64,000 nucleotides of DNA, from contig OZ024743.1 of assembly GCA_964016885.1 (NCBI GenBank), positions 336,474,001 to 336,538,000 on the forward strand. The letters are read 5' to 3'. The position numbers were made by a program, and so were the translations under genes. A model generated the notes under the pieces. It did no database searches and had not been told where the DNA came from. It worked only from the letters and a program-made list of their open reading frames with translations. This document shows positions 3,339-55,010 of the stretch, in pieces. This stretch comes from Eledone cirrhosa (taxonomy: Eukaryota). The first letter of the stretch is position 1, and every line of letters begins with the position of its first letter.

Positions 3339-3417
3339 ATCTCTACCATTGTTTCGTTCGTATTTTTAGGTATCCTATTGTTAGGATGGACCCAGAGTAA
3401 CAGATTCATCAGGAGAC
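3339..3417 (-). ncRNA. Type I hammerhead ribozyme with long stem II
   Basis: gtctc CTGATGA ...about 50 nt... GAAAC aatg GTA gagat; stem I tctc/gaga. Confidence 0.75.
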
Positions 3418-5351: not shown

Positions 5352-5392
<41 letters not shown>

Positions 5393-5395
<3 letters not shown>

Positions 5396-6512
5396 AGTTA
5401 ATATAAATTAATATATGATAAACACTAATACAATCATATAAGTGTTTGTATTGCAAATGACCAAGTTAGCTAGATTGAAAAATACTAATTAGATTAATAC
5501 AGTTTGCCTGTCTCGATTTAAAATAATAAATCAATAAAAACAAACCCATATTGGCAATAGCCGTGATACCTGGACAAATTTAAATTTCAAAACCCAAACC
5601 TGTTCCGTAGACAAATTTAAATTTCAAAACCCAAATAAGTTTCGCAACGATAAGTGAAATAGTGAAAAATTCCATTCTCTGTGCTCCTCGGCAGGTATCC
5701 AGAAAAATTGGTATGTTTCACCTCGAAATACTTAGGAGGACTGATAGGCAAGTGTTAACGCACATGGTTTTTCAGCTCCTAGCTATCCCCATACTCGTGC
5801 TGCTAGAAATAACAGCCGTTTTTATGGGACTAAAATTTAGCTCAACAAAAGGAGCCGTTAATACTATATATAGAGTTATAAACTCAAACAGTCTTTTACA
5901 ATTAAATAGCTCAAAGAAAGAAGTATTTCTGAGCCGTGATATACAAGTTAATATAAATTAATATATGATAAACACTAATACAATCATATAAGTGTTTGTA
6001 TTGCAAATGACTGTTATTTCTAGCAGCACGAGTATGGGGATAGCTAGGAGCTGAAAAACCATGTGCGTTAACACTTGCCTATCAGTCCTCCTAAGTATTT
6101 CGAGGTGAAACATACCAATTTTTCTGGATACCTGCCGAGGAGCACAGAGAATGGAATTTTTCACTATTTCACTTATCGTTGCGAAACTTATTTGGGTTTT
6201 GAAATTTAAATTTGTCTACGGAACAGGTTTGGGTTTTGAAATTTAAATTTGTCCAGGTATCATGGCTATTGCCAATATGGGTTTGTTTTTATTGATTTAT
6301 TATTTTAAATCGAGACAGGCAAACTGTATTAATCTAATTAGTATTTTTCAATCTAGCTAACTTGGTCATTTGCAATACAAACACTTATATGATTGTATTA
6401 GTGTTTATCATATATTAATTTATATTAACTTGTATTTCACGGCTCAGAAATACTTCTTTCTTTGAGCTATTTAATTGTAAAAGACTGTTTGAGTTTATAA
6501 CTCTATATATAG
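5393..6512 (-). mobile_element. ORF-less 550-nt-period unit with a about 500-bp inverted copy (6011-6512)
   Basis: Direct repeat 5393/5943; 6011 onward is the reverse complement; two degenerate HHR-like cores (CTGAAAA..GAAAC and CCGAGGA..GAAAC). Confidence 0.65.
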
Positions 6513-6529
6513 TATATATATATATATAT

Positions 6530-7540
6530 AAAATTGTGAAGGAGCCGAGGTCTGTAACTTGAGCAGAGTCCATGGATCCCATCGTAATATCGAATAAGTT
6601 GTTATATGTGTTCTTGTCCAGTATTCTTCCTGGAAGTTTAGTAAGGTTTTACTAGCGTGAGTTATGATGTTGATTTCCTCAGTAGATAAATCCGATCTAT
6701 TTCTGGCAAAGATCAGTGCTTTGTTTAAAAGAATTGGAGAAATCCAAGAATAGTAAGAATCGATGTCAAATTGAATGAATGAAGACGAGTTTCTATTTTC
6801 AATACTAGTGAACCATTCTCCTGCTATCATTAATTACATAGGAATAGCTCAAGGATTAATGAGAATAGTATAGGCACCCACCCCCAACAACCATCTTACG
6901 TATGGCTGTAATTGCAGAAATAGAAGCATTTGCCCCTTAAATGGCAACTGTTTGATTAATAATGTAATATATAAATGCACTGTGTCTACTACAGACTCCA
7001 AGACAACATATATAGGATCTACATCAAACACATTTAAGAAAAGACTTTACGCACACTCTAATAGTTTCAACAATACTAAACTAGCTAACACCACATCTTT
7101 AGCTGAAGCGGTAAATAATTATAAATCGGAAAAAATAGATTTCAAGTTATTGTGTAACACCATTCTACAAAGAACTCCATATCTTGGGAATAGGAGTGAA
7201 TGCAGATTATGTTCAGGGGAGATCTTGGAAATTACTAAATCTAAGGACGATTTATTAAATAAAAGGCAGGAACTGATCATAGTTTGTAATCACCGTATAC
7301 AAAGAACATTTAAATACTATAAACCTAATTAAATACTATAAACCTAATTAAATATTCGAAATAGCAACTCACTATAATTATATATAGAGTAACATTTATT
7401 AGTACCCCTTTCCCCTAATTATATGCATTCATGCTTATTTTTTACCTTTTATGTTTTAGTTTCCTTAGATTTATGCGTTAATGACTAAAGGCAAAAAGGT
7501 ACACAACCACCCGTAATTGCAAGAGTAAATATATATCTAT
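6530..7540. mobile_element. Rearranged PLE of YRDD type: inverted RT fragment (6530-6830, minus) + GIY-YIG (6850-7332, plus)
   Basis: FIQFDIDSYY RT motif A; VIYKCTV..YIGSTSNTFKKRLYAH and CRLC..E GIY-YIG motifs. Confidence 0.85.
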
Positions 7541-9610: not shown

Positions 9611-12432
9611 TTAGTGGGAGATAAGTGAGGGGAGGAGGGGGCGGTCGAACACTAAAGGAATAAGGGTAAGGAGTTCAGGCCGGGGGAGTGTGGGTCTGTA
9701 AGATGAAGATAGTTCGTTGTTCGACCGTAAGACGATGGGCGGGTGTTCCGTGGCACTGGAGTAGGCCACAGACTGTGAGATGGCGTGCGGAGTGTCCAGG
9801 GCCACCAAAGTGGCGGGCGATGGGGGAACTGCCCCCGAGACGAATATCCCGGAGGTGCTCCGTGACTCGGTCCGCCAGGCGACGTCCCGTCTGTCCGACA
9901 TAAGTCGAATTCCGTAGACTAGGTTGGAGGAGGTGCAGCGGAAGGCATGCCGGACGGAGAGAGAGTGGCCGTTGGGACCCTGGAAGGAGGTGGTGTTGGT
10001 GATGTGGGGACAGGTGTTGCAGCGGGGCCTAGAACAGGGAAAGGAACCGGGGGGAACAGAGCATGGGTTGGGGGTAGGGAGCTGTGGACGAGGAGGGTGC
10101 GGAGATTGCGTGCGCGTTTGAAGGAGGGGAGTGGTGGGGTTTGGAAGATGTGGGAGGTGGAGGGGTCAGACTGGAGGCGTCGGAAGAGGCGGCGGATGGT
10201 GCGGTGGTGGGTAAGGTGGAGGGGTGGTAGGTGATGGGGAAGGGGAGACGGTGGGTGGGTGTGCGGTGGCGTGGGGTGAGGGTGGTGGAGCGGGGGACAG
10301 CACGGGCGCGGGTGAGAGCGGTGTAGACGGGGGGGGGGGGGGGGGGGGTAACCTCTGCGGATGAAATGGCTGACTAGGGAAAGGGCCTGGGACTCGAAGT
10401 CAGCATCACGGCTACAGAGACGGCAGATCCTGAGAAGTTGGGAGTAGGGAATGGAGGGTTTAGTATGGGTGGGGTGGGAAGAGGTGAAGTCAATGTAAGA
10501 GTGGGAGTCGGTGGGTTTGAAGAAGGCGGAGGTGACGAGGGAGTGGTGGGAGGGGTCGAAGGCGACGGAGATGTCTAAGAAGTGGACGTGGGTGGTGGAG
10601 ATAGAGGTGGTGAAGTGGAGGGAGGGGTGGAAGGAGCAGAAGAAGGAGAGAAAGGAGTCGAGCTGTTCTCGGGTGAGGGTCGTGGCTCCGATACAGTCGT
10701 CAATGTAACGACCGTACAGTTCGGGCGTGGGGCCGGTGTACTGGGCAAAGATTTGGGCCTCAACATGGCCAACAAAATGGTTGGCATAGTTCGGGCCCAT
10801 TCTTGTACCCATGGCTACCCCCGTGACCTGTTGGTAAAACTCACCCGAGAAGGAGAAACAATTTAGGGTGAGGACCAGCTCGGCGAGGCGAAGGAGGGTG
10901 GGGTGGAGGGAATGGGGGAGGGGCGAAGGTCGAGGTAGTGTTTGAGGGCGCGAAGGCCGTCGGCGTGGGGGATGACTGTATAGAGGGACTTGATGTCTAG
11001 GGTGAAGAGGAAGGGCTGTGGGCCGGGTAGGTAGGTGAAGGAGTCGAAAAGGCGCAGGGCGTGGTTAGTGTCGGAGATGTGGGAGGGGAGGGTGGTGACA
11101 AGGGGGGCGAGGAGGGAGTCGAGAAAGGCGGAGATGAGTTCGGTGGGGCAGTTGCAAGCGGAGACGATGGGGCGGCCGAGGTTGTCGGGTTTGTGGAGTT
11201 TGGGGAGGAAGTAGATGGTGGGGGTGCGAGGGGTGCGGACGATGAGGTGGGAAGCGGTGGGGGGAGGAGGGAGGAGGCGATAAGGTCTTTGATGGTGGAG
11301 GAGACTTGTTGTTGGTAGAGGGGGGTGGGATCGGAGGGTAGAGGGCGGTAAAAGAGGGGGTTACAGAGCTGCCTGAGGGCTTCGGCCGTGTAGAGGTCCG
11401 CGCGCCATACCACTATTGCGCCTCCCTTGTCCGCCGGTTTGATGACGATGTCATCTCGTCTACAGAGGGAGCGGAGAGCGAGGAGTTCGCCCCGTGAGAT
11501 ATTGTGCCGTTTGGAACGGTGGCGGAAGTTGAAACGATTTACTGCGCTACGGCTGGCATCGACGAAGGCGTCCAGGGTGCTAAATTGCCCTGGGGCCGGC
11601 GTCCAAGAAGATGGTCGTCGGCCCAGGGCGAGAAACGGGTCTGGGGCGTCCGGAGCCGGTGGCGTTCGGCTGAAATGTGCCTGTAGCTTAGTGCGTCGCA
11701 CGAATCGCTCGACTTCCGTTCGGGTGCGGAACTCGTCGCTGTGCTGAGTGTGGGGTATGAAGCGAAGGCCTCTACTTAGGAGTGAGCGCTCAGGTGTGGA
11801 GAGGGGGAGGTCAGGGGTATGTTGACAACAAGGGGTGGTGTTTTGGGTGTTTGGGGGGATCGGAGCATGTGGTGAGGGGTGAGGTGGAGGGTGGAGATTG
11901 GGTAGGGGTGTGGGTCGGGGAGAGGTGGAGAGTGGTGGGCGTATGGGGATGGGCGGGTGGTGGTGGATGGGGGGAGTGAGTGTAGCTTGCGGGCTTTGGT
12001 GGAGCTGAGGAACGAGAAGAGGTTGTGGTTGAGGTTGTGGATGAAGGAGAGGATGGCTTCGGCGAGGAGGGGGTGGCAGATGGAGTAAAGGCGGAGGAGG
12101 GTGGGGGTCAGTTGGTGGTCAAGTAGGCGGAGGGTGGAACGGGAGGCGCGGATGGAGTTGCGCATCAGGAGGCGTGAGGATCGGGTGAGGATACGTTGCG
12201 TGGAGGGGGAAGCGGCGGGGGAGGGGTGGAAGTGTAGACGAAAGCCGAGGGGGATAAGGTGGAGGCGGAGGCAGTGGCTGAGGAAATGGATGTGGCTGGA
12301 GTGCCGGGTTTTGGCGAAGAGAAGGTAGGAGAGTTGAATGTCGGAGGGGAGATAGCAGTGTGGGAGGAGGGGGGTGAGGAAAAGTTTGAGGCGATTGTGT
12401 AGTTGGTGGAGAAAGGATCTCAGGTTGGGCAT
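9611..12432 (-). pseudogene. PLE RT-GIY-YIG polyprotein, frameshifted
   Basis: PADKGG, DIKSLYTVIPH, GVAMGTRMGPNYAN, YGRYIDD, Cys linker CSRPRCNTC, YVGQTGRRLADR..EH. Confidence 0.9.
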
Positions 12433-22806: not shown

Positions 22807-25800
22807 GAACTTTCCACACACCTTCCCACAACTTGTTTTTCCTTTCTTTGCATTACCTTTGATTGATTTATTTACTGTACTTGTTTATTTCTGTCTATAA
22901 TTTTTTGTCAATGATTGCCTGTGTTTTTACGATTATGATTTTTTGTCTATGATTTTCCTGTGCATACTCTCCTCTCCTTACGTTATTTCTCTTTGATTTT
23001 CCCTCCGCCGTCTCTGCCTATCATTCGCTCTCACCCCTTCATTCCACCCCCACCACCCCCGCTTCACACACCCTCCTTCTCATCCCTCCCCCTGCTTTCA
23101 CTCCATGCCCACCATGCCCAGCCTGAGATCCTTTCTCCACCAACTCCACACTAGCCTCAAACGTTTCCTCACCCCCCTGCTCTCACCCTGCTATCTCCCC
23201 TCGGCCCTTCAACTCACCTACCTTCTCTTCGCCAAAACCCGGCACTCCAGCCACATCCATTTCCTCAGCCACTGCCTCCACCTCCACCTTATCCCCCTCG
23301 GCTTCCGTCTGCACTCCCCCCCCCCGCTTCCCCCTCCACCCAACGTATCCTCACCCGATCCTCGCGCCTCCTAATGTGCAACTCCATCCGCGCCTCCCGC
23401 TCCACCATCCGCAAACTTGACTACCAACTGACCCCCCCCCTCCTCCGCCTAAACTCCGCCTGCCACCCCCCCCCCTCGCCCACGCCATCCTCATCTTCAT
23501 CCAAAACCTCAACCACGACGTCTTCTCCTTCCTCACCTCCACCAAAGACGGTAAGCTACACTCACTCCTCCCAACCACCCCTATCCAACACCACCCGCCC
23601 ATCCATATGAGCCCCCCACACCCACCCCACCCATCCCCACCACTCTCCAACCCTCCCCCAACCCACAACCCTACCCAATCTCCACCCTCCACCTCACCCC
23701 TCACCACACCCTCCCTTCCTCCCTCACACACCCAAACCCCACCATTTGTTGTCACCATACCCCCTGACCTCCCCCTCTCCGCACCTGAGCGCTCACTCCT
23801 TAGTAGAGGCCTTGGCTTCATACCCCACACCCCGCACAAAGACGAGTTCCGCACCCGAACGGAAGTCGAGCGATTCGTGCGACGCACGAAGCTACAGGTA
23901 CATTTCGGTCAAACGCCACCGGCTCCGAACGCCCCAGACCCGTTTCTCGACCTGGGCCGACGACCATCTTCTTGGACGCCGGCCCCAGGGCAATTTAGCA
24001 CCCTGGACGCGTTCGTCGATGCCAGCCGTAGCGCCGTAAATCGCCTTCGAGCGCCCCCCTCCCCCCACACATATCCCCCACTAACACCACTAACACACCC
24101 CTCCTTTTCACCGCCCACCCCACAACTAACAATGCTAACACCTCCACCCCACACCCGACCACCCTTCCCCAACTAACATACTAACATCCCTCCCTTCTTC
24201 TTCCCCCCTCCCCTTATCAAACGCACACACCCACCGTTACATATATACGGAATAACATCTCACGGAATAACATATCACGGGGCGAACTCCTCGCTCTCCG
24301 CTCCCTCCGTAGCCGAGATAACATCGTCATCAAACCGGCGGACAAAAGAGGCGCCGTGGTGGTGTGGCGCGCGGACCTCTACACGGCCTAAGCCCTCAGG
24401 CAGCTCCGTAACCCCCTCTTCTACCGCCCTCTACCCTCCGAACCCCCACCCCTCTACCAACAAGTTTCTTCTACCATCCAACACCTTGTCTCCTCCTCCC
24501 CACCGCTTCCCACCTCATCGTCCGCACCCCCCCCCGCACCCCCACCATCTACTTCCTCCCCAATCTCCACAAACCAGACAACCTCGGCCGCCCCATCGTC
24601 TCCGCTTGCAACTGCCCCACCGAACTCATCTCCGCTTTTCTTGACTCCATCCTCGCCCCCCTTGTCACCACCCTCCACTCCCACATCTCCGACACCAACC
24701 ACGCCCTGCACCTTTTCGACTCCTTCACCTACCCACCCGGCCCACAGCCCTTCCTCTTCACCCTAGATATCAAGTCCCTCTATACCGTCATCCCCCACGC
24801 CGACGGCCTACGTGCCCTCAAGCACTACCTCGACCTTCGCCCCAACCCCATCCGCTCCACCCCCACCCTCCTTCGCCTCGCCGAGCTGGTCCTCACCCTT
24901 AACTATTTCTCCTTCTCGGGTGAGTTTTACCAACAGGTCATGGGGGTAGCCATGGGTACAAGAATGGGCTCAAACTATGCCAACCTTTTTGTTGGCCATG
25001 TTGAGGCCCAAATCTTTGCCCAGTACACCGGCCCCACGCCCGAACTGTACGGTCGTTACATCGACGACTGTATCGGAGCCACGACCCTCACCCGAGAACA
25101 GCTCGACTCCTTTCTCTCCTTCTTCTGTTCCTTCCACCCCTCCCTCCACTTCACCACCTCTATCTCCACCATCCACGTCAACTTCTTAGACATCTCCGTC
25201 GCCTTCGAACCCTCCCACCACTCCCTCGTCACCTCCTCTTTCTTCAAACCCACCGACTCCCACTCCTACCTCGACTTCACCTCTTCCCACCCTACACACA
25301 CTAAACACTCTATTCCCTACTCCCAACTCCTCAGCATCCGCCGCCTCTGTAGCCGAGATGCTGATTTTGAGTCCCAGGCCCTTTCCCTAGTCAGCCATTT
25401 CATCCGCAAACGTTAACCCCCTCTCTCGTCCACACCGCTCTCACCCGCGGCCGTGCTGTCCACCGCTCCACCACCCTCACCCCACGGCATTGCACACCCA
25501 CCCACCGTATACCCTTCCCCATCACCTACCACGCCTCCACCATCCTCGGCTTCTTCCGACGCCTCCAGTCCGACCCCTCCACCTCCCACATCTTCCCAGC
25601 CCCACCACTCCTCTCCTTCAAACGTGCACGCAATCTCCGCACCCTCCTCGTCCACAGCTACCTACCCCCCCCCGATTCCCTTCCCTGTTCCAGGCCCCGT
25701 TGCAACACCTGTCCTCACATCACCAACACCACCACCTTCCAGGGTCCCAACGACCACTCTCTCTCTGTCCGGCATGCCTTCCGCTGCACCTCCTCCAAAC

Positions 25801-27660
25801 TAGTCTACGGACTTCGCTGCACGGAGTGCAGCTCAACCTACGTCGGACAGACTGGACGTCGCCTGGCGGACCGGTTTACCGAACACCTCCGAGATATTCG
25901 TCTTGGTGGTAGTTCCCCCATCGCCCGCCACTTTGGTGCCCCTGGACATTCCGCACACCACCTCACAGTCTGTGGCCTACTCCAATGCCACGGAACAAGC
26001 GCCACTCTCCTCAGGGTCGAACAACGAACCATCTTCACCCTACAGACCCACACTTCCCCCGGCCTGAACTCCCCAACCTTATTCCTTTAGCCTTCGACCG
26101 CCCCCTCCCCCCACACTTATCCCCACTAACACCACTAACACACCCCTCCTTTTCACCGCCCACCCCACAACTAACAATACGAACACCTCCACCCCACACC
26201 CGACCACCCTTCCCCAACTAACATACTAACATCCCTCCCTTCTTCTCTCCCCCCTTATCAAGCGCACACACACACCGGTACATATATACACGCGCTCACA
26301 CTAAACACACACCCTACTACCACTACTAACCCTCACCCCCACACACCCACCCCACCACCCCGAAACTAACATCACTAACACCCCCTACCCCACGCACACG
26401 AACACACACACCCACTTACACCACCCACTCTACACGCAACTAACATCACTAACACCCCCAAACCCTACGCACACGAACACACACACACACTTACACCACC
26501 CACTCTACACACCCTACCACCACTGACCCCCACTCACACCTGCATTCAACCCTTTCCCCACCACAAGTATACTAACACCCACTAACACCCCCTTCACCAC
26601 ACACACACACTCATCCAAACACGCACACACACACCAGTACACTACACTCCCTCCACCGGCCCCCACACCCTTCTTTCCCCGCTCCACCCACACCCTTTCT
26701 CACATACACACACATCCCACTAACACCTCTACTAATGCACACAACCCCTCCTCACTCCAACTTTCACACCTACCATCCTCTCCCCTGTCCACCGCACCTC
26801 CGCATACACTGACACACCGACTTTCTTCACTTACCATTCTACCCGACTGCTGCTATGCCCTTATCTCTGACCACCTCCCCGCGCACACAGACACACAACC
26901 CTCCTCCTGCCTTGACCCTCTGACCACTTCCTATTGCGCGCGCACCTCACATCTCCCCTCTTCCAACCAACCCAACCACGGATTACACTTATTGAACATC
27001 GATCCCTAGAATCCACCACATCCCAAGGATATTACCCAGTATTCCACCACATCCTCTACAGAACTACCTTAAGGACTCACCCACTGACATACACTAAAAA
27101 AAGAATTTTTCCCACACGCCACCTACATCCACAACACGCATAAACACACACACACACGTGCGTACCACCACATATTTACACACTCAGCCTCCGGAATCCT
27201 CTCCCCCACCCCTCACACCCTTCCCCATCCACACACGCACACACACACCGATCTACACCCCACCCCACACACACCTCTTCCTGAACATGCAACCCGTTCT
27301 TCCCCAAACTCTTACTTTCACATACACACATACACACACACGTACACCTACACACACCCGCCACCACCCCTACACGCCCCACATCCTTCCACCACCTATT
27401 TTACTTCATGTTTATTTTTATTTTTATTATGCTTTTATATTTAATTTCATTTGTACCGTTTCTTCTCACCCCCTTTTTTTCTATATGTCTCTCCACCACT
27501 CCCCTACACACCCTTAGAACTCTCTTCCCACACACTTTTCACTTGAAGAAGGGCTTATGCCCGAAACGTCGTTCCCCACCACCCCACCCCACTCACAAGA
27601 GCGTGAAACTAATAAACGTTTGTTCGTACTGCCTCTCTGTTTTGTTCCCGTTCAATTTTT

Positions 27661-30804: not shown

Positions 30805-31210
30805 ATTGTTTCTACTTTTGGCACAAAGCCAGCAATTATCCCAGTGTATTACTCGTACTTTATTTTATCGACCCCGTAAGGATGAAAGGCAAAGTTAACC
30901 TCGGCGGAATTTGAACTCAGATCATAAAGGGCCGTAACTCTTTGCTGCAAAACATGGCGTCCGACCTTCTATCGATACTGCCAATCCTCCGCCCTGTATG
31001 ATTTCTACTATAGGCACAAGGCTTGTAATTTGGGCGGAGAGGAAAGTCGATTAAATCAACCCCAGTACGTTACTGGTACTTTATTCTATCGACCCCGTAA
31101 GGATAAAAGGCAAAGTTAACTTCGGCGGGATTTGAACTCAGACGGTGAAGGGCCGTAACTCTATATTGCAAAGCATGGTGTCCGATTCTCTACCTATACT
31201 GCTAATCCAT
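30805..31210 (-). mobile_element. Two tandem OR-like SINEs
   Basis: Two B-box and core motifs (about 30805-30995 and 31000-31210). Confidence 0.85.
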
Positions 31211-31522: not shown

Positions 31523-31563
<41 letters not shown>

Positions 31564-31566
<3 letters not shown>

Positions 31567-32394
31567 CGGAGCAAGTAATCATCAAACGATCTTTTAAATA
31601 AATTAAAAAACGATTTAAATATTCACCTGTTCTATTGCCGTTACCGTTATACGCTTATAGTATGGAAATAGTTGTCTGAAGATCTAATTCTTTCCATTGG
31701 AAATTGTCTGGATTTCCAATTTTTTGATTAGTGAAACCGTCGGTAACGGCAATAGAACAGGTGAATATTTAAATCGTTTTTTAATTTATTTAAAAGATTG
31801 TTTGATGATTACTTGTTCCGCTCATTTTTATAGTTCTGGTATCTCAAATTAGTACCATCGAACCGCAACTATTATAAACACCATGCATATTTCTGCAGGT
31901 ACTTAGTGCCTGTCGGAATATCCATACCCTTTTATAATTTTTCTCCGATATGTAGAGAACAAAACGTTGTATCGCGCTGCTATTTCTAGCGGCATGATCA
32001 ACAAGTTTATAATAACCCGCTTTTGCTCATGGCCTATTTTTGTGTGAAGTCACTTTAACGGCTTGACCGTATGCAACGGTCGGGAAGCGAAATATTTACT
32101 TACTATGAGGCTTTATACCCTTATAGTGTGGAAACAGCTGTCTGAAGATTTAATTCTTTACATTGGAAATACTCTGGATTTCCAATCTTTTGATTAGTGA
32201 AACCGTCGGTAACGGCAATAGAACAGGTGAATATTTAAATCGTTTTTTAATTTATGTAAAAGATTGTTTGATGATTACTTGATCCACTCATTTTTATAGT
32301 TGTGGTATCTCAAATTAGTACCATCGAACCACAACTATTATAAACACCATGCATATTTCTGCAGGTACTTAGTGCCTGTCGGAATATCCATAAC

Positions 32395-32399
<5 letters not shown>
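31564..32399 (+). mobile_element. ORF-less 466-nt-period unit with two intact HHRs (31671-31750, 32137-32216) and a 5' inversion (31564-31646)
   Basis: gctgt CTGAAGA ... GAAA ccg t cgG TA acggc twice, 466 nt apart; flanked by (TA)n. Confidence 0.85.
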
Positions 32400-32443
<44 letters not shown>

Positions 32444-39084: not shown

Positions 39085-41520
39085 ATAGTATAAAAGAGAA
39101 AACACAGGTAAGCATTAAGAGAAGGATTTTATCCAGGTATTTACGACCGTTTCATTGGTAAGTGCAACCTTATATTGCTATACTGCAAATAGCAGCCACT
39201 CAATTATAATTGTTGTTCACGTCCAAATTTTCAAAATAGTGAGTAAGTAACTCTTGAAAGAGTTCTTAATATATAGAGAAACTCATTTTTTTTGGAATTG
39301 TATTTACTAGTATAGAGAGAGAGGAAGAGGAATTAGAAAGTGATGGGACAAACAGAATAGTATATATAGAGAGAGGAAGGGGGAGAAGTGTTAGGAAGTA
39401 GAGAGACAAACTGAGATGGAGGGAGGGGTAGAGGTGGAAGGATTCCTTGAGCAGTTTTGATACGTAGACTTCATGTCGTCGGTTGTAGTGAGTTAAAGAG
39501 AATTAAATTGATCATAGTGGGAGGGATGGATATAGAGAGAGAGAGGGGAGAGAGATATAAAGAGATAAATATATATATAAAAAATAAAGATAAAAATAAT
39601 AATGATAAAAATAAAAGTAAAGGAGGGGGAGAAAGAAGAAAAGAAAAGATAGCCAAAAAGGGGAGGGAAGAAAGGAAGAAAACGAAGAAATAGAAGAGGA
39701 ATGAAGGTGAAGGGAGGGATATAGGTATTGGTTTTCGTGGGTAATTAAAGGGGTTAGATACAATAAGAGGGTATAATCTCTAAGTATATGCAGTTTGTCA
39801 GTTGGTAGTAAGAGGTTAAGGGTTCGCTTTGCACTTGTAGTGCGAACACTTTTCTTTGAGTCTATGGTTATAATAAATTGATCTTTCGATTTTATTGTTG
39901 AGTAACTTATTCTTCGAACTCAAAATGTGGAACAGCTCAAGGTCACATAATCGACAGCTTCTCATACCACTCCGATATGGGGGCGCGTTCGATAATTTTT
40001 TCCACTTCAGGGTGTATTGATGGTTACTTTCCCTCAGTTGCCAGGTCTTGCTAGCAAGGGTAGTTACATAACGATGCTGGGAATGTTTCATTGCGTAACG
40101 GTGTGTATACCAACGGGCTTTAAATGTATTCCCAGTCGCTCCGATGTAATTCTGGTTGTCTGATTCCACTGTGCATTGGTAAACCAGGTTAGACTGCATA
40201 CATTCATTATGTAATGGACAGGTTTCAGGTAGGTGGCAGTCATGGGCAACTTTGGCATTATTGGTGGGCTGCGATGCCTGTACAAGTGTGTTACGTTTTG
40301 TTTGCCTATTAGTGGGTGGTTGTGTATTAGATATTCTGTTGTGTTCAATGGTGATTGTATTGTTATTGTTATAAATTTGTGTTCTGGTGTTGTTATGTAT
40401 CTTTTTAGCGTTAAGCATCTTAATGTGTGCCTCTATATTTGGTGCCGTGGAGTAAGATAGTCTAATAGATTTAGTGTTAAGGATTTTGCTGTATCTATAT
40501 GAATCTGGAAAGTGCCTATTTATTATTCTAAAGAAGGTAGAGAGTAGGTTAGTACTAATAGAGGTTAAATATGGGGTTATACCAAATATATTTTCTACTG
40601 CGTGACTTGTTTGATTTCGATGTTGTATTTCTATTTACCGTATAATTTGTAGTTCTATGCTTAAATGCGCGTGTGCGTGTGTTTCTGGAGTTTGTGTTAT
40701 GCGTGTTCGTGTGCGCTTCACAGAGGCTTTCATCTATATATTCTACTCTATCTAAGTGGCCTGTCTTGTCTAATGCGGTATTGTAGTATTCTGCATGTTC
40801 CTCGAAGATTTGTCGGTTAGCCGAGAGGCGGGAGATCCTAAGGGATATGCTGCGTGGAATGGATTTAATTATGGATAATGGGTGGTTCGAGTTACAGTTG
40901 ATGTATGCTAAGTTTTCATTAATCTTGTGAAAAGGTCTTATAAGTCCCGTATTTAGGTTAAGCATCGCGTCTAGAAAGTTAACTGTTTTAGTGCTATACT
41001 CATACGTTATGCTAAGGCCTAGTTTCCCGAGAGTCTTTCTAATAGAAAGATTCTGTAAGAATATTAGAAAGACTCTCTACTTCCTAACACTTCTCCCCCT
41101 TCCTTTCTCTTTATACTATTCCGATTGTCCCATCACTTTCTAATTCCTCTTCCTCTCTCTCTCTATACTAGTAAATACAATTCCAAATGAATGTTTTTCT
41201 CTATATATTAAGAACAATTTCAAGAGTAACTTACTCACTATTTTGAAAATTTGGACGTGAACAAAAATTATAATTGAGTGGCTGCTATTTGCAGTATAGC
41301 AATATAAGGTTGCACTTACCAATGAAACGGTCGTAAATACCTGGATAAAATCCTTCTCTTAATGCTTACCTGTGTTTTCTCTTTTATACTTTATACTCCA
41401 AGATTGAACGGAATTCTAACAAACTTGTGGAGTTAACCCTAACGGTACTTTGAAACCATCATGAAACTGGCTTTCTTAACCACGAACTGGATCACAATAA
41501 GCAATTTTCTGCTTCCCTAA
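39085..41520 (-). mobile_element. 5'-truncated YRDD-type PLE (RT thumb + GIY-YIG, 39816-41040) with inverted pLTR at 41070-41520
   Basis: IWYNPIF, CHLPETCPL, LVYQCTV..YIGATGNTFKARWYTH, CRLC; degenerate HHR (GAAAC ggtc GTA). Confidence 0.9.
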
Positions 41521-41589: not shown

Positions 41590-42707
41590 TATATATACAT
41601 ATATATATATTTCGTTTCTGAATTTGTTTAGCAAGATTCTTTATCTGAAAACGTGTGTTGAAACCGATATTGTTATACTTTGGAAGGGTCATGTTGCCAA
41701 TAAGAAACACACGCACCAGTTGCTTTCACTTCAATTTATTATAATAAATTTATAAATTTGGGAATTTATAAAGTTTCGGTTGGTTGGTTGGTTCCACAAC
41801 CAGATGGTTGTTTATATATTGTCAAAGTTCTTTCGTCACACATTCTGTGACCTCTTCAGTGACTGGGGATTCTTTTCTTTGTTTTTGTGCCTCTCCTTTG
41901 TTCTGTCCTACGCCATCTTGTTTCTGTGTGTGTGTTGTGTGATCAGTCTGCGCATGCGCCACATCCGGGTGTCTGTGAGTGTTTATATTCGTTTATTTAT
42001 TTGTTTATTTACATGTTACTGGTTGGTTGTTTGTTCTATGTGCGTGTGTGTTTTCATTTTGTCCTTAATTGTAAGTTGTGATGTTGCTGTTCCACTCATG
42101 TTTTCTATTTAATTTTGGTTGTAATTCTTTTATGTTTATTGCCTCTGTGATTTGTCTAAACATAGTGTCTTTTCTGTGTGTAGATTCTATTTTTATTTCT
42201 CTGTTCCTAATTTACCCTTATGTTCTATTTTATCATGTTGGTAGAGTACAGATGATTCTTTACTATCTTGAAGGTCTCGCCAATGTTCATTTATCCGTTC
42301 CACTACACTACGAGCTGTCTCACCTATGTACAATATATTTTTATCTCTACATTGTCCTTCAGTACATCTTATGCTATATACTACATTTCTAGTTTTACAG
42401 TTAATATGGGGGCTTAATTTACAGATTATACATTTCTTATCTATACAGGGAGGTCTTTGAAAAGGGTATGTCTTGCTAATAAGTGTTTTTATGGAGGTAC
42501 CTGGTCTTTCTACTATCTTAATATTGAGTTTATGTTTATCTAGGGCCCTTCTAAATGTGTAAGCTAATTCACCTCTAGGGGTTGTATCGATGAACATTAC
42601 ACTCTGGTATTTATTGCTATCATACCATGAGTTTATTCTATTAGCCTTATTCCTAGTTCTTTCTATTCTATTCCAAAATTTGCTCCTATACAAGGGGCAG
42701 GTCCCAT
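41590..42707 (-). mobile_element. 5'-truncated PLE family B1; HHR at 41821-41863
   Basis: MFIDTTPRGELA..VVYSIRC..YIGETARSVVERINEH. Confidence 0.9.
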
Positions 42708-42827
42708 CGTTGTTGACATGTTTGGGGAGGTGGTTTAAGAGGTCCAGATCGTCTCTTACAAGGCCTGGTATGTGTTTGAGAATTGGTTTTAGTAGTATGT
42801 CTATAAAGTTGCTCAGTCTGTGTGTTT

Positions 42828-42913
<86 letters not shown>

Positions 42914-42914
42914 C

Positions 42915-42955
<41 letters not shown>

Positions 42956-42960
<5 letters not shown>

Positions 42961-44674
42961 CACACAGACTGAGCAGCTTTATAGACATACTACTAAAACC
43001 AATTCTCAAACACATACCAAGCCTTGTAAGGGACGATCTGGACCTCTTAAACCACCTCCCCAAACATGTCAACAGCGACACTATTATTGTGTCTTTCGAT
43101 GTAGTAAATCTCTACACGACGATCCCTCACCAATACAGACTAGAAGCAATAGGATTCTGGCTAGAGAAATATCCCAATGAGATACCTGGCAGAATAGAAA
43201 AAAGCTTCATCACCGAGTGATTAATATTTATCTTACAGAACAACTTTTTTGATTTCGATGGCAGTACTTACAAGCAAATATCGGGGACTGCGATGGCTAC
43301 AAAAGCCGCTCCAACTTATGCCAACTTAGTCATGGCATACTTAGAAGTTCAGATATATGAACAGTCCAAATCAAAATACGGATTGAACTTCCACAAATAT
43401 TTATCAGAGAATTGGAAACGCTACTTGGATGATTGTCTCATTCTTTGGTCCCACACACTCGACCAACTGAAGGATTTCAAAAACTTAATAAACGGCATCA
43501 ATAACCACATCCAATTCACAATGGAATACAGCCAAGATCAACTGCCATTTCTGGACATGTTAATCTTAAAAAAAGACACAAATATTGAAACTGACATACA
43601 CTACAAACCAACAGATTCCAAACAATACCTGCTATTCACCTCCAACCATCCAAAGCACATGAAGACGAACATTCCTTTTAACCTAGCAAGAAGAATTTGC
43701 ACAATTGTCTCCAATTATGAAACGCGAAATAAAAACTTCAAGAATTAAAGGAAATTCTACTCGAAAGAGAGTACCCACTATTACTAATAAATGATGGAAT
43801 AGAAAGGGCTAAAGCAATAGGCATTGATGAATTACGAAAACAGAAACAAATTCAAGGTACGTCCAATATTCTATCATATATCTCAAACACAACCCAAGAA
43901 ATGCGGAAGCTTACAACACTATTCACAAGAACATCCCACTACTAAAACAAAACCTAAGAATGAAAAAAGCCCTTGAAACACACAAAATAAGCAAAAGCAA
44001 AAGACAACCGAAATCACTGAAAACATTACTCACCAATGCCAAATTACCTAGCAGAAACCCACAACCAAGTGTCAAAAAATGTGGTCACTCTAATTGTGGA
44101 ACCTGCACTCACCTCATTGAAGGCAACACGTATACATTTAAATCAGGACAAAATTTTACTGTAAAAAATCATTTCACTTGCTCATCAAAAAATCTAATTT
44201 ATGCCATTAAATGTAAAGGATGCAATGAAGATTATATAGGACAAACTAAACTCACACTCAGAAACAGAATGACAGTTCTCTCGCCAACAATTACGAGATC
44301 CAACCACGAGACAGATACCACTAAGCACACATCTAGACATATGCGCAAGTAATAAGAAACCCAAATTCCAAGTATTCCCATTTTACCTTTGCGCTAACAA
44401 TACAACAGAACAAATACGAATAAATAAGGAAAATATGTTTATTCAAAAATATAGACCAGCATTAAATATGGTTTAATATACATTATGTCAACACCATAAC
44501 ATGCTAACCATCCAAACAGACACATACACATATAACACCTTCTACTTTAGAAAATAAAAACCCGAACTAAATAAACCTTAACATACGTTTGCACTGACAA
44601 TACAACAGAACAAATACGAATAAGTAAGGAAAATATGTTCATTCAAAAATATTCCTACTAAAGAAATCATTTTC

Positions 44675-46572: not shown

Positions 46573-47680
46573 TTTCGTTTCTGGATTTGTTTAGCAAGAT
46601 TCTTTATCTGAAAACGTGTGTTGAAACCGGTATTGTTATACTTTGGAAGGGTCATGTTGCCAATAAGAAACACACGCACCAGTTGCTTTCACTTCAATTT
46701 TTTATAATAAATTTATAAATTTAGGAATTTATAAATTTCTGGTTGGTTGGTTCCACAACCAGATGGTTGTTTATATATTGTCAAAGTTCTTTCGTCACAC
46801 ATTCTGTGACCTCTTCAGTGACTGGGGATTCTTTTCTTTGTTTTTTGTGCCTCTCCTTTGCTCTGTCCTACGCCATCTTGTTTTTGTGTGTGTGTTGTGT
46901 GCTTAGTTTGCGCATGTGTTACATCCGGGTGTCTGTGTGTGTTTATATTCGTTTATGTATTTGTTTATTTACATGTTACTGGTTGGTTGTTTGTTCTATG
47001 CGCGTGTGTGTTTTCATTTTGTCCTTAATTGTAAGTTGTGATGTTGTTGTTCCACTCATGTTTTCTATTTAATTTTGGTTGGAGTTCATTTATGTTTATT
47101 GCCTCTGTGATGTGTCTAAACATTGCGTCTTTTCTGTGTGTAGATTCTATTTTTATTTCTATGTTCTCTAATTTACCCTTATGTTCTATTTTAGCATGTT
47201 GGTAGAGTACAGATGATTCTTTACTATCTTGAAGGTCTCGCCAGTGTTCATTTATCCGTTCCCCTATACTACGAGCTGTCTCACCTATGTACACTATATT
47301 TTTATCTCTACATTGTCCTTCAGTACATCTTATGCTATATACTACATTTCTAGTTTTACAGTTAATATGGGGGCTTAATTTACAGATTATACATTTCTTA
47401 TCTATACAGGGAGGTCTTTGAAAAGGGTATGTCTTGCTAATAAGTGTTTTTATGGAGGTACCTGGTCTTTCTACTATCTTAATATTGAGTTTATGTTTAT
47501 CTAGGGCCCTTCTAAATGTGTAAGCTAATTCACCTCTAGGGGTTGTATCGATGAACATTACACTCTGGTATTTATTGCTATCATACCATGAGTTTATTCT
47601 ATTAGCCTTATTCCTAGTTCTTTCTATTCTATTCCAAAATTTGCTCCTTTATAACGGAGGCAGGTCCCATGTGTGTCATC
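46573..47680 (-). mobile_element. 5'-truncated PLE family B1 with intact GIY-YIG reading frame (47025-47558); HHR at 46780-46822
   Basis: VVYSIRC..YIGETARSIGERINEH..EAININELQPKLNRKHEW. Confidence 0.9.
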
Positions 47681-50837: not shown

Positions 50838-52084
50838 GAGAGAATTAGTACATCTACCAAGATATGTGTACAGATGTACACTCATGCTAGCAAATATAAG
50901 TTATGTCTTAGTACCTATGTGGTTCTATGCAGGGGGATGCAGAACAATTATATGAAAGACGTAAAATAAGAAAATTTAAAAAATTAAAAATCAACTTACT
51001 AAAATTTTCAGTCCAACTAATTAGTTTCTGTAATGGGATAAATATAGTTACATAATATAACTATAGAGAATTCATTACGTCATCGGGGAGTCTATTCTCA
51101 GCTAAGTTCCCAGGCAATGCGCGGACACTAGGAACCCATATAAAAATAATAATTCAGTGGATAGAATAAAGCTAGCGAGGACTAAATTCCGGAGCACTGA
51201 AAAAATTTCACTGCCTCTGGTCAGTGGCAGATTCTAAAGAATCAATCACGTGACACCGGGGTTAATCAGTTAGGAGCGGGGTGGTATTATGACAAGTGCC
51301 TACTACTACCATGAAACAGCAGTAAATTTTGGCAAGTTTTGTTCAACAAATAAGTTGGAGATAAATATAGAGAATTAGTACATCTACCAACATATGTGTA
51401 CAGATGTACACTCATGCTAGCAAATATATAAGTTATGTCTTAATACCTATGTGGTTCTATGTAGGGGGATGCAGAACAATTATATGAAAGACGTAAAATA
51501 AGAAAATTTTAAAAATTAAAAATCAACTTACTTACTAAAATTTTCACTCCAACTAATTAGTTTCTGTAATGGGATAAATATAGTTACATAATATAACTAT
51601 AGAGAATTCATTACGTCATTTTTAATTTTTTAATTTTCTTATTTTACGTCTTTGATGTACTAATTCTCTATATTTATCTCCAAATTATTTGTTGAGCAAA
51701 ACTTGCCAAAATTTACTGCTGTTTCATGGTAGTAGTAGGCTCTTGTCATAATACCACCCCGCTCCTAACTGATTAACCTCGGTGTCACGTGATTGATTCT
51801 TTAGAATCTGCCACTGACCAGAGGCAGTGAAATTTTTTCAGTGCTCCGGAATTTAGTCCTCGCTAGCTTTATTCCATCCACTGAATTATTATTTTTATAT
51901 GGGTTCCTAGTGTCCGCGCATTGCCTGGGAACTTAGCTGAGAATAGATTCCCTGATGACGTAATGAATTCTCTATAGTTATATTATGTAACAATATTTAT
52001 CCCATTACAGAAACTAATTAGTTGGAGTGAAAATTTTAGTAAGTAAGTTGATTTTTAATTTTTAAAATTTTCTTATTTTACGTC

Positions 52085-52852: not shown

Positions 52853-55010
52853 AGAATGAATAATAACAGGTAGACATCATAAAAAGGTAATTTATTCCGT
52901 GTGCTTACAAGTGTTTCCACGGTGGTACTACAGCCTAGTTATGCTATGTGCAAATTTACAAGTACTTGCAGAACTCAAATATCCAATGCTGTGACCACTG
53001 TTTCCTCAGAGCAGAATGGTAAAATGTACAATGTAAATACCCTTAAGTGGGGTTGTTGGGGAAGATAGAGTAGAAAAGGAAGAGAGAAAAGTAGGGAAGA
53101 GGGAGAGAGAAAGAAAGATATGCAGGGGTTGGAGAAATAGGAGAGAGTGGCTTGTAGATATCTTAATCAAAATGTTATGGTAGGGGTTTTATTATACTGG
53201 TTACTTTTGGAGAGATGCGTTGATAGTTAAGGTCGGAATTATTTATTGCCCCAGAGGGCAGGTTCATAGATGTTGGGAGGGAGGTAGGCCAAAGGCGAGA
53301 GAGAGAGAGTGTAATGGATGTAGAGAGAGAGAGGTAGAGAGGGGACAGACGAAGTTTGTGTGGTGAGTGAACTTTGGGTTTGTAATAGTAATCTAGGAAT
53401 TGCACTGAGTTACCATGTATAGTGATAAGCAGTGTATTGTCTTGTAGTGTGGGGGGAAGAGAAGGTTGTTAGCTAGAAAGCGGTGTTATAGTTACGGGTT
53501 CGAATGTTAAGTTATTTTATAGTGAGAGTATTTAGCTTTTAGTTTGTGGTTGCAGTATAATGATCGTTCAATTCTATCGTTAAGTAGTTTGTTTTGGGAT
53601 TTTAATATGTAAAAGAGCTCAAGGTTACATAACCTGCAGTACTTCAATCCACTCCGATATGCACTTGCGCTGGAAAGTATATCCCATTTTAAGGTGAACT
53701 GTTGGTTGTGTTCACGGAGTTGCCAGGTCTTGTTGGCGAGCGTGGTCACAAAACGGTGATTCGGATGTTTGATTGAGAATCGATGACGGTACCAGCGAGA
53801 TTTAAACGATGTGGTGGTAGATCCGATATAATACCATTTCTGGTCGTTCGATTCAACCGTGCATTGGTAAACAATGTTGGACTTTAGGCATTCATTCTTC
53901 AATGGACATCTTTCAGGTAGATGGCAGTTACATTCTTTGTTGTGGGTAGCGGGTATACCATGGATAGGTTGTGATAGCGGTACAGGTGGGTTGTGTAATA
54001 CCCGTCTCCCATTTAGTGGTTGGCAGGCCGATATTGCGTTCTGCCCATCTGTTACTAAAATGTTTTGTTTTGTAGAGTTGTTTAATTGCCTTAAGTTAAG
54101 TTTTTTTATGTATGCTTCAAGGTTTGGTGCCGTGGAGTATGATAGTCTAATAGTTTTAGAGTTCAGAATGTTGCTGTATTTATGGGAACTAGGGAAGTGT
54201 TTGTTGATTAACTTAAAGAATGAAAGAGATAGTTTTGTACTAATCGAGGCATTAAAAATAGGATTGTACCAGATATACTTTCTACAACGTGATTTATTTG
54301 GTGGTGATCTTCTATTATTAGTATGTCTGGTAGTACTGTGTGTGTGTGCTTGTATTTTAGTCCCCCGGTTACGCATTCCTTGATTTCGTGTAGAGCTATG
54401 TGTGTTATGGAAATTCATATCAATGTATTCTATTGTATCCCGGTGGTCAGCATTCCTTAATGCATTATTGTAGTATTCAGCGTGTTCACTAAAAATATCA
54501 GAGTTAGACGATAGGCGAGAGATTCTAAGAGAAATACTCCGAGGAACTGATTTGATCATGGAGAGTGGATGGTTAGAGTTAAAGTTAATATACGTAAGGT
54601 TCTCATTTACCTTGTGGAAGGGTCGTATCTGTCCGGTATTTAAATTAAGAGTTACGTCCAGAAAGTTTACTACTTTAAGATTGTATTCGTATGTTATTTT
54701 TAGACCCAGTTCACTAAAAGATTTTCTAATATTTTTCCGTAGCCTTTCAAGATTTTGGTTATTCAAGTTATTAACTAATAAGAGCCCGTCATCTCTGTAT
54801 ATCCTCCCCCCTGTAGATTACTAAATTTACTATGTAATATGTGGGCTATGTAAATTCCCACGAGATCTGTGACCTCCGCCGAGTCGTTGGAACCCATGGT
54901 AATATCGAAATTTGTGGGTCTGTCCTTACGTTCCCAGTAGCAGTTATCGAACTTAATAATGGTTTTTCTAGCCTCGAGAATAATATTAATATCCAGTGTA
55001 GTAATTAACC
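52853..55010 (-). mobile_element. 5'-truncated YRDD-type PLE (resembles the Hydra clade); HHR at 52902-53013
   Basis: FDITMGSNDSAEVTDLVG, IYRDDGLL; tgct CTGAGGA..GAAAC actt GTA agca. Confidence 0.92.
53507..54800 (-). pseudogene. PLE RT C-terminal half + GIY-YIG endonuclease (over 400 uninterrupted codons, 5' truncated)
   Basis: VNFLDVTLNL, IWYNPIF, CNCHLPERCPL, IVYQCTV..YIGSTTTSFKSRWYRH, CRLCNLE, CNHK. Confidence 0.9.

Follow-up and report, generated by a model that had tools for sequence, protein, structure and literature searches.

An aged two-armed insertion of a 466-nt repeat with paired predicted hammerheads in Eledone cirrhosa: a likely non-LTR retrozyme copied by a Penelope-like element enzyme

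Metazoan non-LTR retrozymes are described (PMC7229834; 10.64898/2026.07.22.740005) as short non-coding tandem units with a GC content below 50%. Each unit carries one type I hammerhead with a short palindromic helix III, the predicted circle is structured, and the units co-occur with Penelope-like elements (PLEs). The repeat reported here shares these features; it was found in a 64,000-nucleotide stretch of the Eledone cirrhosa genome (the window; contig OZ024743.1 of assembly GCA_964016885.1). Its unit of 466 nt compares with ~170-400 nt in PMC7229834 and lies inside the range of 51-972 given in 10.64898/2026.07.22.740005, and the locus contains two consecutive units with complete cores, the criterion used by Li et al. 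(10.64898/2026.07.22.740005). Unlike the retrozymes of these accounts, the Eledone family has a 50-nt stem II region, consists mostly of dispersed arms of less than 1.5 units, is strictly targeted to (TA)n and forms two-armed insertions. A circular template has been proposed for the coral, mussel, and axolotl retrozymes, circularised by RtcB in vitro. Mobilisation of retrozymes by PLE enzymes has been proposed rather than shown.

The axolotl ribozyme HHR_Amex2 (Rtz_353) is reported to reach 22% cleavage within one hour when monomeric and to cleave far better when dimeric (PMC7229834). The Eledone hammerhead shares with it the U·U at the base of helix II, a two-pair helix III, and the prediction that the dimer performs better; here, however, a 3-nt loop closes helix III, and an internal loop together with a 9-bp hairpin lengthens helix II. 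With the minimal PLE hammerheads of PMC4209133 it has in common the type I topology, a 5-bp helix I, a weak palindromic helix III, the dimer model, and an expected low activity in vitro, whereas the helix II region measures 50 nt here and 7-8 bp there. The EN+ PLEs of the Hydra and Neptune clades (PMC8557442) and Poseidon PAc (PMC11167929) share partial tandems, an inverted 5'-truncated arm, an optional 3' tail, a (TA)n preference, a hammerhead near the 3' end, and two start sites with the Eledone family. Hydra-1_Obim and Naiad_Obim are Octopus entries with a (TA)n preference (PMC8557442). In contrast to the EN+ PLEs, the Eledone repeat has no ORF, its tail is ~104 nt long instead of 30-40, and it shares no sequence homology with any tested end of a Hydra-like or Neptune-like element. 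Plant LTR retrozymes differ in carrying type III hammerheads in their LTRs, as opposed to the type I topology and head-to-tail units found here. By its sequence, the family is likely a metazoan non-LTR retrozyme, and it has the insertion anatomy of a non-autonomous PLE. We regard the family as new but its kind as known, be it that of non-LTR retrozymes or of non-autonomous PLEs, and published family tables may list relatives.

Sequence analysis of the 64-kb window places the element at 31564-32399, between two (TA)n runs, and divides it into three pieces (Table 1). We read it as an aged two-armed insertion of the 466-nt repeat, likely a non-LTR retrozyme that was copied by a PLE enzyme and that carries paired predicted hammerheads. 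A direct repeat of 290 nt with 95% identity recurs within it at a spacing of 466. The inverted arm at 31564-31646, which the original prediction had left undescribed although it lies inside the stretch concerned, is an inverted copy of 31741-31832 (92-nt arms, 96% complementary) and overlies the first cleavage site. Since both flanks are (TA)n, any target-site duplication is unreadable. The GC content of the unit is 36%. The original prediction had stated that the element contains no ORF, and this was confirmed: the longest stop-to-stop frames overlapping the region do not exceed 70 aa, and in the circularised monomer no ATG ORF, whichever the strand, is longer than 30 aa. An ORF with RT plus GIY-YIG is absent from the element, which thus does not qualify as an autonomous PLE.

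Table 1. Coordinates of the element, its flanks, and its predicted features (window positions).
Feature	Position	Strand	Remarks
(TA)n target, left side	31528..31563	.	
Inverted arm, unit positions 95 to ~179	31564..31646	-	near family short 3' end; antisense to first cleavage site
Unit 1, full 466-nt non-coding unit	31647..32112	+	repeat comparison
Hammerhead 1 (type I)	31671..31750	+	core letters and predicted fold
Predicted cleavage site 1, after GUA	31745..31746	+	placed by hammerhead consensus
Predicted excised monomer, 466 nt	31746..32211	+	from predicted cleavage sites
Possible retained intron	31761..31955	+	donor-like GTRA at 31761; acceptor-like, pyrimidine-rich TAG with its end at 31955
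Family short 3' end (unit position ~186)	31826..31832	+	inferred reverse-transcription start 1
Conserved "box" hairpin, 7 pairs, 4-nt loop	31976..31993	+	common to other repeat families
Unit 2, partial	32113..32399	+	stops at the long 3' end of the family (unit position ~290), putative start 2 of reverse transcription
Hammerhead 2	32137..32216	+	core at 32142-48; stem II with a private C>T (32150); cleavage predicted to follow 32211
(TA)n target, right side	32399..32440	.	

The "motif box" that had been noted between the ribozymes, a term left undefined, probably corresponds to the hairpin at 31976-31993. This hairpin is kept in all three subfamilies of the repeat (3/3), with changes that mostly preserve pairing; with 3-5 mismatches it recurs at three other sites of the window and in 5 of 48 GIY-YIG loci, where the surrounding repeats are unrelated. 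A two-armed repeat at window 5390-6400 has the same box hairpin at 5816 (-) and 6010 (+) and is kin to the repeat at locus L033.

Because PLEs are known to keep introns, the interval 31761-31955 could plausibly be a retained intron that would enclose both 3' ends. The donor-like site, 15 nt past the cut, and the acceptor-like site at 31955 are both kept in the three subfamilies, and both family 3' ends lie within the interval. No splice joint for it was present in the contigs of three sequencing runs from one sample. These contigs contain family variants, TA junctions, and the head-to-tail joint, and resemble genomic DNA; the runs possibly come from the assembly's own sample and were excluded from support.

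The repeat belongs to a family of at least 300 copies. A 20-mer around the cut site has at least 301 exact matches in the 3.0-Gb genome and a neighbouring 27-mer at least 342 (controls, 0 in both cases); as exact-match counts, these are lower bounds. Three subfamilies can be distinguished, with B 82% and C 72-77% identical to the window unit. Locus L092, which looked like a partner end, proved to be a member of subfamily C. Copies are dispersed across many chromosomes and have fixed ends in (TA)n; one arm, at L019, comprises nearly three units. Multi-copy, dispersed, and low in GC, with tandem non-coding units, a type I hammerhead in each, and two or more consecutive cores, the family has sequence features by which non-LTR retrozymes are recognised.

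The hammerhead consensus has a core of CUGANGA, GAAA, and UH, joined by three helices. In the element, the first core half is CTGAAGA at 31676 and 32142 and the second GAAAC..GTA at 31733-31745 and 32199-32211, and the conserved type I core is joined by three helices. The claim that two hammerheads lie exactly one monomer apart therefore stands, their spacing being the 466 of the direct repeat. In hammerhead 1, stem I (31671-75/31746-50) includes two G·U pairs, the core occupies 31676-82, the U·U lies at 31683/31732, stem II at 31684-88/31727-31, the inner hairpin at 31696-31720, and helix III at 31736-44. The predicted fold gives stem I five pairs and helix III an A-U and two C-G pairs with a 3-nt loop, while the 50 nt between the core halves form the U·U, a stem of 5-6 pairs, an internal loop, and a 9-pair hairpin. 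These ribozymes had been called canonical, a description at odds with their 50-nt core spacer, with the U·U at the base of stem II, and with Rfam, where no hammerhead match was obtained at the gathering score or at E<=10. A weak score for Rfam mir-8517 came merely from the inverted-repeat hairpin. Across the family, too, helix II is neither short nor closed by a Watson-Crick pair: 92 of 104 motifs have the U·U, and the spacer ranges from 49 to 54 nt. A minor variant, at L079, L088, and L098, has stem II closed by A-U in place of U·U.

A local tandem duplication, or satellite DNA with a hammerhead-like motif arisen by chance, would agree with the lack of an Rfam match and with the folding of the isolated 126-nt regions, which is no better than that of shuffles (z about 0). 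We consider such an origin extremely improbable, as it is contradicted by the dispersal over many chromosomes with fixed (TA)n ends, by the covarying stem II, and by a motif pattern beyond that of shuffles. The pattern core/spacer/GAAAC/GTH has four matches in the window, where shuffles average 0.10, and four matches were reached in 0 of 100 shuffles; the two cores of the element are duplicates and count as one independent motif. Covariation was assessed on 63 of the 104 motifs, hand-picked to span the subfamilies. Paired cells amounted to 91.9%, compared to 25-49% in slid-partner controls. Five of the six stem II pairs change on both sides, with pairs 19-64 and 20-63 unpaired in 20/63 and 24/63 motifs, respectively. 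In stem I covariation is poor: one of five pairs changes on both sides, and pair 7-82 is unpaired in 14 of the 63. Only eight pairs change on both sides in total, a number that 85 of 500 shuffles reached under a control that ignores relatedness. The hammerhead fold is supported because stem II covaries across the three subfamilies; cleavage itself is a prediction. Both core halves are kept in 36 of 53 ribozyme-spanning pieces of the closest loci, a count that leaves out L029 (the same place as L019) and 13 partial pieces. We think it reasonably likely that the ribozyme is active in fresh members of the family.

Helix III is self-complementary, and the palindromic stem III suited to dimer formation of the original prediction was borne out by calculation, with -11.3 kcal/mol for the dimer duplex versus +0.4 for the monomeric hairpin. 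The double-hammerhead fold was computed to be cheaper than two separate folds in 14 of 15 constructs. Since helix III favours the duplex and the double fold costs less than two single ones, the ribozymes likely act as a dimer, as far as folding models can tell. The active fold differs from the predicted ground state even for the isolated ribozymes, at a cost of 4.5 and 5.8 kcal/mol.

Ends and arms were mapped in 65 insertions picked solely by the 20-mer (25 initial loci and 40 among the first 100 matches listed; five duplicate loci were excluded from the counts). Their 100 arms include 52 with an end at unit position 176-190 and 34 with one at 285-296; of these 86, 79 run into (TA)n. The 5' ends, on the other side, are scattered over the whole unit. 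Two arms are present in 31 of the 65 insertions, and all 31 are arranged head to head. One short and one long end were found in 22 of the 31, two short or two long ends in none, and nine had one end unassigned. The window copy fits the short-plus-long arrangement, with the short end on the inverted arm and the long end on the main arm. The family therefore has two traits expected of a non-autonomous PLE, namely a partial tandem with an inverted 5'-truncated arm, and two alternative 3' ends (the optional tail); for PLE copies, the literature describes partial tandems together with a 5'-truncated copy in inverted orientation and a tail that may be present or absent. A purified lizard PLE is likewise reported to cut and extend both strands in vitro, with two internal start sites matching the tail. 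We are confident that the family is mobilised by a PLE. In the literature searched, with mostly open-access coverage, no publication on cephalopod retrozymes or on the short-plus-long rule was found.

The same rule holds in two abundant families of autonomous-type PLEs of this genome. The Hydra-like PLE has RWR, DKT, and CxCX5C motifs, 713-aa frames, and copies that are 98-99% identical; its ends lie ~89 nt apart, and all 8 of its 8 two-armed loci, one of them cut by the locus edge, combine a short with a long end (14 duplicate or overlapping loci were excluded from the comparisons of the tandem units and the Hydra-like element). The Neptune-like PLE, named by its CxxC linker, encodes RT and GIY-YIG and has 11632 exact terminal 27-mers. 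Seven of its nine two-armed loci are short plus long (eight duplicates excluded); the pair L310/L311, 3.5 kb apart, has two long ends and stands outside the nine counted. Members of the Neptune-like family were seen at L061, L062, L069, L070, and L072, and a broken copy lies at window 42706-44652. The Neptune-like hammerhead carries a U3-A8 core variant, which has been described for a Schistosoma PLE.

The shared short-plus-long rule supports, at the level of sequence, a PLE enzyme behind the family. It does not name that enzyme, as no autonomous element with the terminal sequence of the unit was found among the PLE families sampled. The unit matched only one of 48 GIY-YIG loci, as a separate insertion past a (TA)n run, with 150 of 10597 GIY-YIG candidates scored. 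Locus L062 was initially taken for an autonomous partner; the relative at this locus, however, is an insertion of its own on the far side of a (TA)n run. A comparison with 30 Hydra-like loci gave no match beyond one 19-mer. In end-to-end alignments with PLE ends, seven of eight were at shuffle level; the eighth (subfamily C versus the Hydra-like end of the window) was borderline, at 3/300 shuffles, and carries no weight here. The 35-50 nt "half core" spacing raised the idea of a Naiad partner.

The unit could instead be the pseudo-LTR of an autonomous PLE not yet found, with the copies as its 5'-truncated stubs. Xenopus retrozymes are described as homologous to pLTRs, PLE 3' ends of the window and genome also bear hammerheads with a long stem II (85 nt at window 53009), and the 150 scored candidates are a small part of the 10597. 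However, in the mapped insertions, arms upstream of the ribozyme continue into another repeat unit, and the nearby PLE proteins at L062, L102, and L121 lie beyond a (TA)n run, which makes this reading improbable. The sole exception is L152:900-2300 (- strand), where a subfamily C unit is fused to a 5'-truncated Hydra-like RT coding sequence with no (TA)n between them. The junction lies 2 nt after the predicted cut site. This single case could have arisen when the template was switched onto a cleaved RNA end or when such an end was ligated, and is only a hint.

If a PLE enzyme copies the family, its template may be a circle or an uncut multimer. Copies starting or ending at the cut site numbered 0/3, 0/7, and 0/30 in separate samples, and none occurred among the mapped arms. 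The template therefore spans the cut site, either uncut or re-ligated; by the same token, the DNA bears no trace of cleavage, and a multimer that was never cut would suffice as template. Within 54 tandem pairs, the median divergence between units of the same arm is 0.040, compared to 0.104 (upstream versus upstream), 0.108 (downstream versus downstream), and 0.107 (cross) between loci. Tandem units match each other at 327 of 343 diagnostic sites. In the tandems, the upstream unit is thus equivalent to the downstream one, and differences recur only at the transition of the end into (TA)n. Folded as a circle, the monomer reaches -121.9 kcal/mol (z -5.3), and 0 of 100 shuffles were as low. Interchangeable units, arms of nearly three units, and the circle folding fit a circle that is read repeatedly; they also fit a homogeneous linear source. 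Whether the circle is the template is, in our judgement, evenly balanced.

The ribozyme may also be a passenger of a non-autonomous PLE, weak or protein-dependent, with an uncut linear multi-unit RNA as template and no circle. This agrees with the lizard PLE, for which hammerhead mutants are reported to insert unimpaired and uncut RNA to be the main substrate, and with Xenopus retrozyme dimers, of which 1 of 9 is reported to have cleaved in vitro and eight not. The lack of genomic ends at the cut site and the presence of at most one full core in 99 of 100 sampled arms point the same way. Against a passenger role, the core letters and a covarying stem II are kept across subfamilies that are 72-82% alike, arms reach nearly three units (L019), and unit variants specific to a position are absent; moreover, copies could presumably only shorten if there were neither a circle nor re-use of the template. 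On balance we consider a mere passenger unlikely.

The preferred reading, in which a retrozyme is copied by a PLE enzyme, would proceed as follows. A source copy would be transcribed through more than one unit, and two ribozymes would pair via the palindromic helix III and cut after GUA. The monomer would probably be ligated to a circle by a host ligase; ligation by RtcB is reported in vitro for the axolotl and mussel retrozymes. The PLE protein would nick both strands of a (TA)n tract, reverse transcription would start at two internal sites ~104 nt apart, one per strand, and run backwards through the ribozyme without stopping, and the two cDNAs would join head to head. More specifically, and tentatively, the family may be the footprint of rolling-circle two-strand priming, in which a PLE dimer copies one hammerhead-made circle from two fixed starts. 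Should this be true, two-armed insertions would receive one short and one long end, a second arm reaching over the cut site would leave an insertion born with an antisense lock, as here, and the short-plus-long arrangement, present in Hydra-like and Neptune-like elements too, would hold for PLE integration in general. The small 466-nt RNA would then be a ready substrate to reconstitute PLE integration. The origin of tandem and inverted PLE insertions is named as an open problem in the literature. The family offers two fixed start-site coordinates and a defined target, together with young candidate enzymes whose open frames are long, and so makes the question of PLE copying testable with a 466-nt RNA. 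A probable cephalopod case would be gained as well, along with a hammerhead whose long stem II escapes Rfam.

The interest lies in this copying signature of the family; the locus itself is of little weight, being a decayed copy with a first ribozyme that is predicted to be blocked. Its two units differ at 15 of 290 sites, each of which has at least one allele that is rare in the family, and two other family-rare alleles are common to both units. Decay after insertion from one template would leave such a pattern. The ribozymes had been called intact, which is correct for the core letters but not for the stems: a private C>T at 31672 lies in stem I, where 82 of 90 family pieces have C, and another at 32150 in the first stem II pair, where 86 of 92 have C, so that one stem pair per ribozyme has become a wobble. 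Other private alleles of the window copy include 31947, 32025, 32070, and 32160.

In the fold of a read-through RNA, the inverted arm pairs with 31741-31823, and the pair probabilities of stem I and helix III are 0.00. Being antisense to the first cut site, the short arm is predicted to give the read-through RNA an 83-bp hairpin, by which the first ribozyme would be switched off. For ribozyme 1, the computed folding cost of 10.9 kcal/mol increases to 16.0 when the RNA is full-length and to ~24.5 when it is nascent, and that of the double hammerhead goes from 13.6 to 33.7 kcal/mol with the inverted arm; these costs are relative predictions that ignore tertiary contacts and folding kinetics. The retrozyme-like tandem unit of the original prediction was thus right in kind, and would, if active, release the predicted monomer, but two claims about the locus are not supported.

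The first of these was that read-through transcription would excise the monomer, which would then circularise. It is compatible with two letter-perfect cores one unit apart and with a double fold that is possible at 13.6 kcal/mol without the inverted arm, which a promoter inside 31647-31670 would avoid. Yet the arm predicted to lie over cut site 1, with its pair probabilities of 0.00 and the dimer cost of 33.7, the private stem mutations in both ribozymes, and the lack of a known promoter make release of such a monomer from this copy very unlikely, and we would be surprised if the locus made the RNA in the animal. The proposed T7 construct (31650-32399) omits the inverted arm and is hence no test of the locus. 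Even without the arm, that construct disfavours stem I of ribozyme 1 (0.00), and a 466-nt band from it is somewhat doubtful. The base rate of such assays is low, given the single cleaving dimer among the nine from Xenopus, and a Penelope-like hammerhead is reported to have required its protein.

The second claim, that this is the best experimental candidate, does not survive comparison with other copies. Arms with two full cores are rare (1 of 100 in the 20-mer-selected sample), which makes the window copy unusual; it is not the best, since it is aged, with 15 private differences, and 8 of 12 sister two-core loci fold more easily in equal-length constructs (2.6-10.4 versus 14.0 kcal/mol here; L167 was not included). 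The lowest costs among the sister loci were 2.6 for L119, 2.8 for L111, and 3.2 for L113.

The surroundings of the element contain further repeats. A 26-nt stub at 31505-31530 matches the short 3' end of the Hydra-like family and directly precedes the (TA)n of the element; the same Hydra-like stub is a neighbour at L024. Two tandem copies of an abundant short repeat, which we take to be an octopus SINE, occupy window 30840-31210. Broken PLE remnants lie at window 9866-11803 (-), 24263-26036 (+), 39837-41016 (-), 6597-7326, and 47034-47444 (-). At window 53009 (-), the hammerhead-like motif with the 85-nt stem II region ends an autonomous-type PLE copy, downstream of a Hydra-like ORF remnant at 53498-55008. 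The Hydra-like 3' end (L254-L283) has a stem II closed by U·U, GAAA, and a first core half CAGAAGA, with no normal helix III or stem I after it, and may be a variant or scrambled hammerhead. Other hammerhead-like motifs in unrelated repeats are found at window 3344-3412 (-), 17093 (+), 51952-52023 (+), and 2134, 41859, and 46818 (-); the motif at 3412 likewise combines a stem II region of 50 nt with an upstream box-like motif, as in the repeat at L071.
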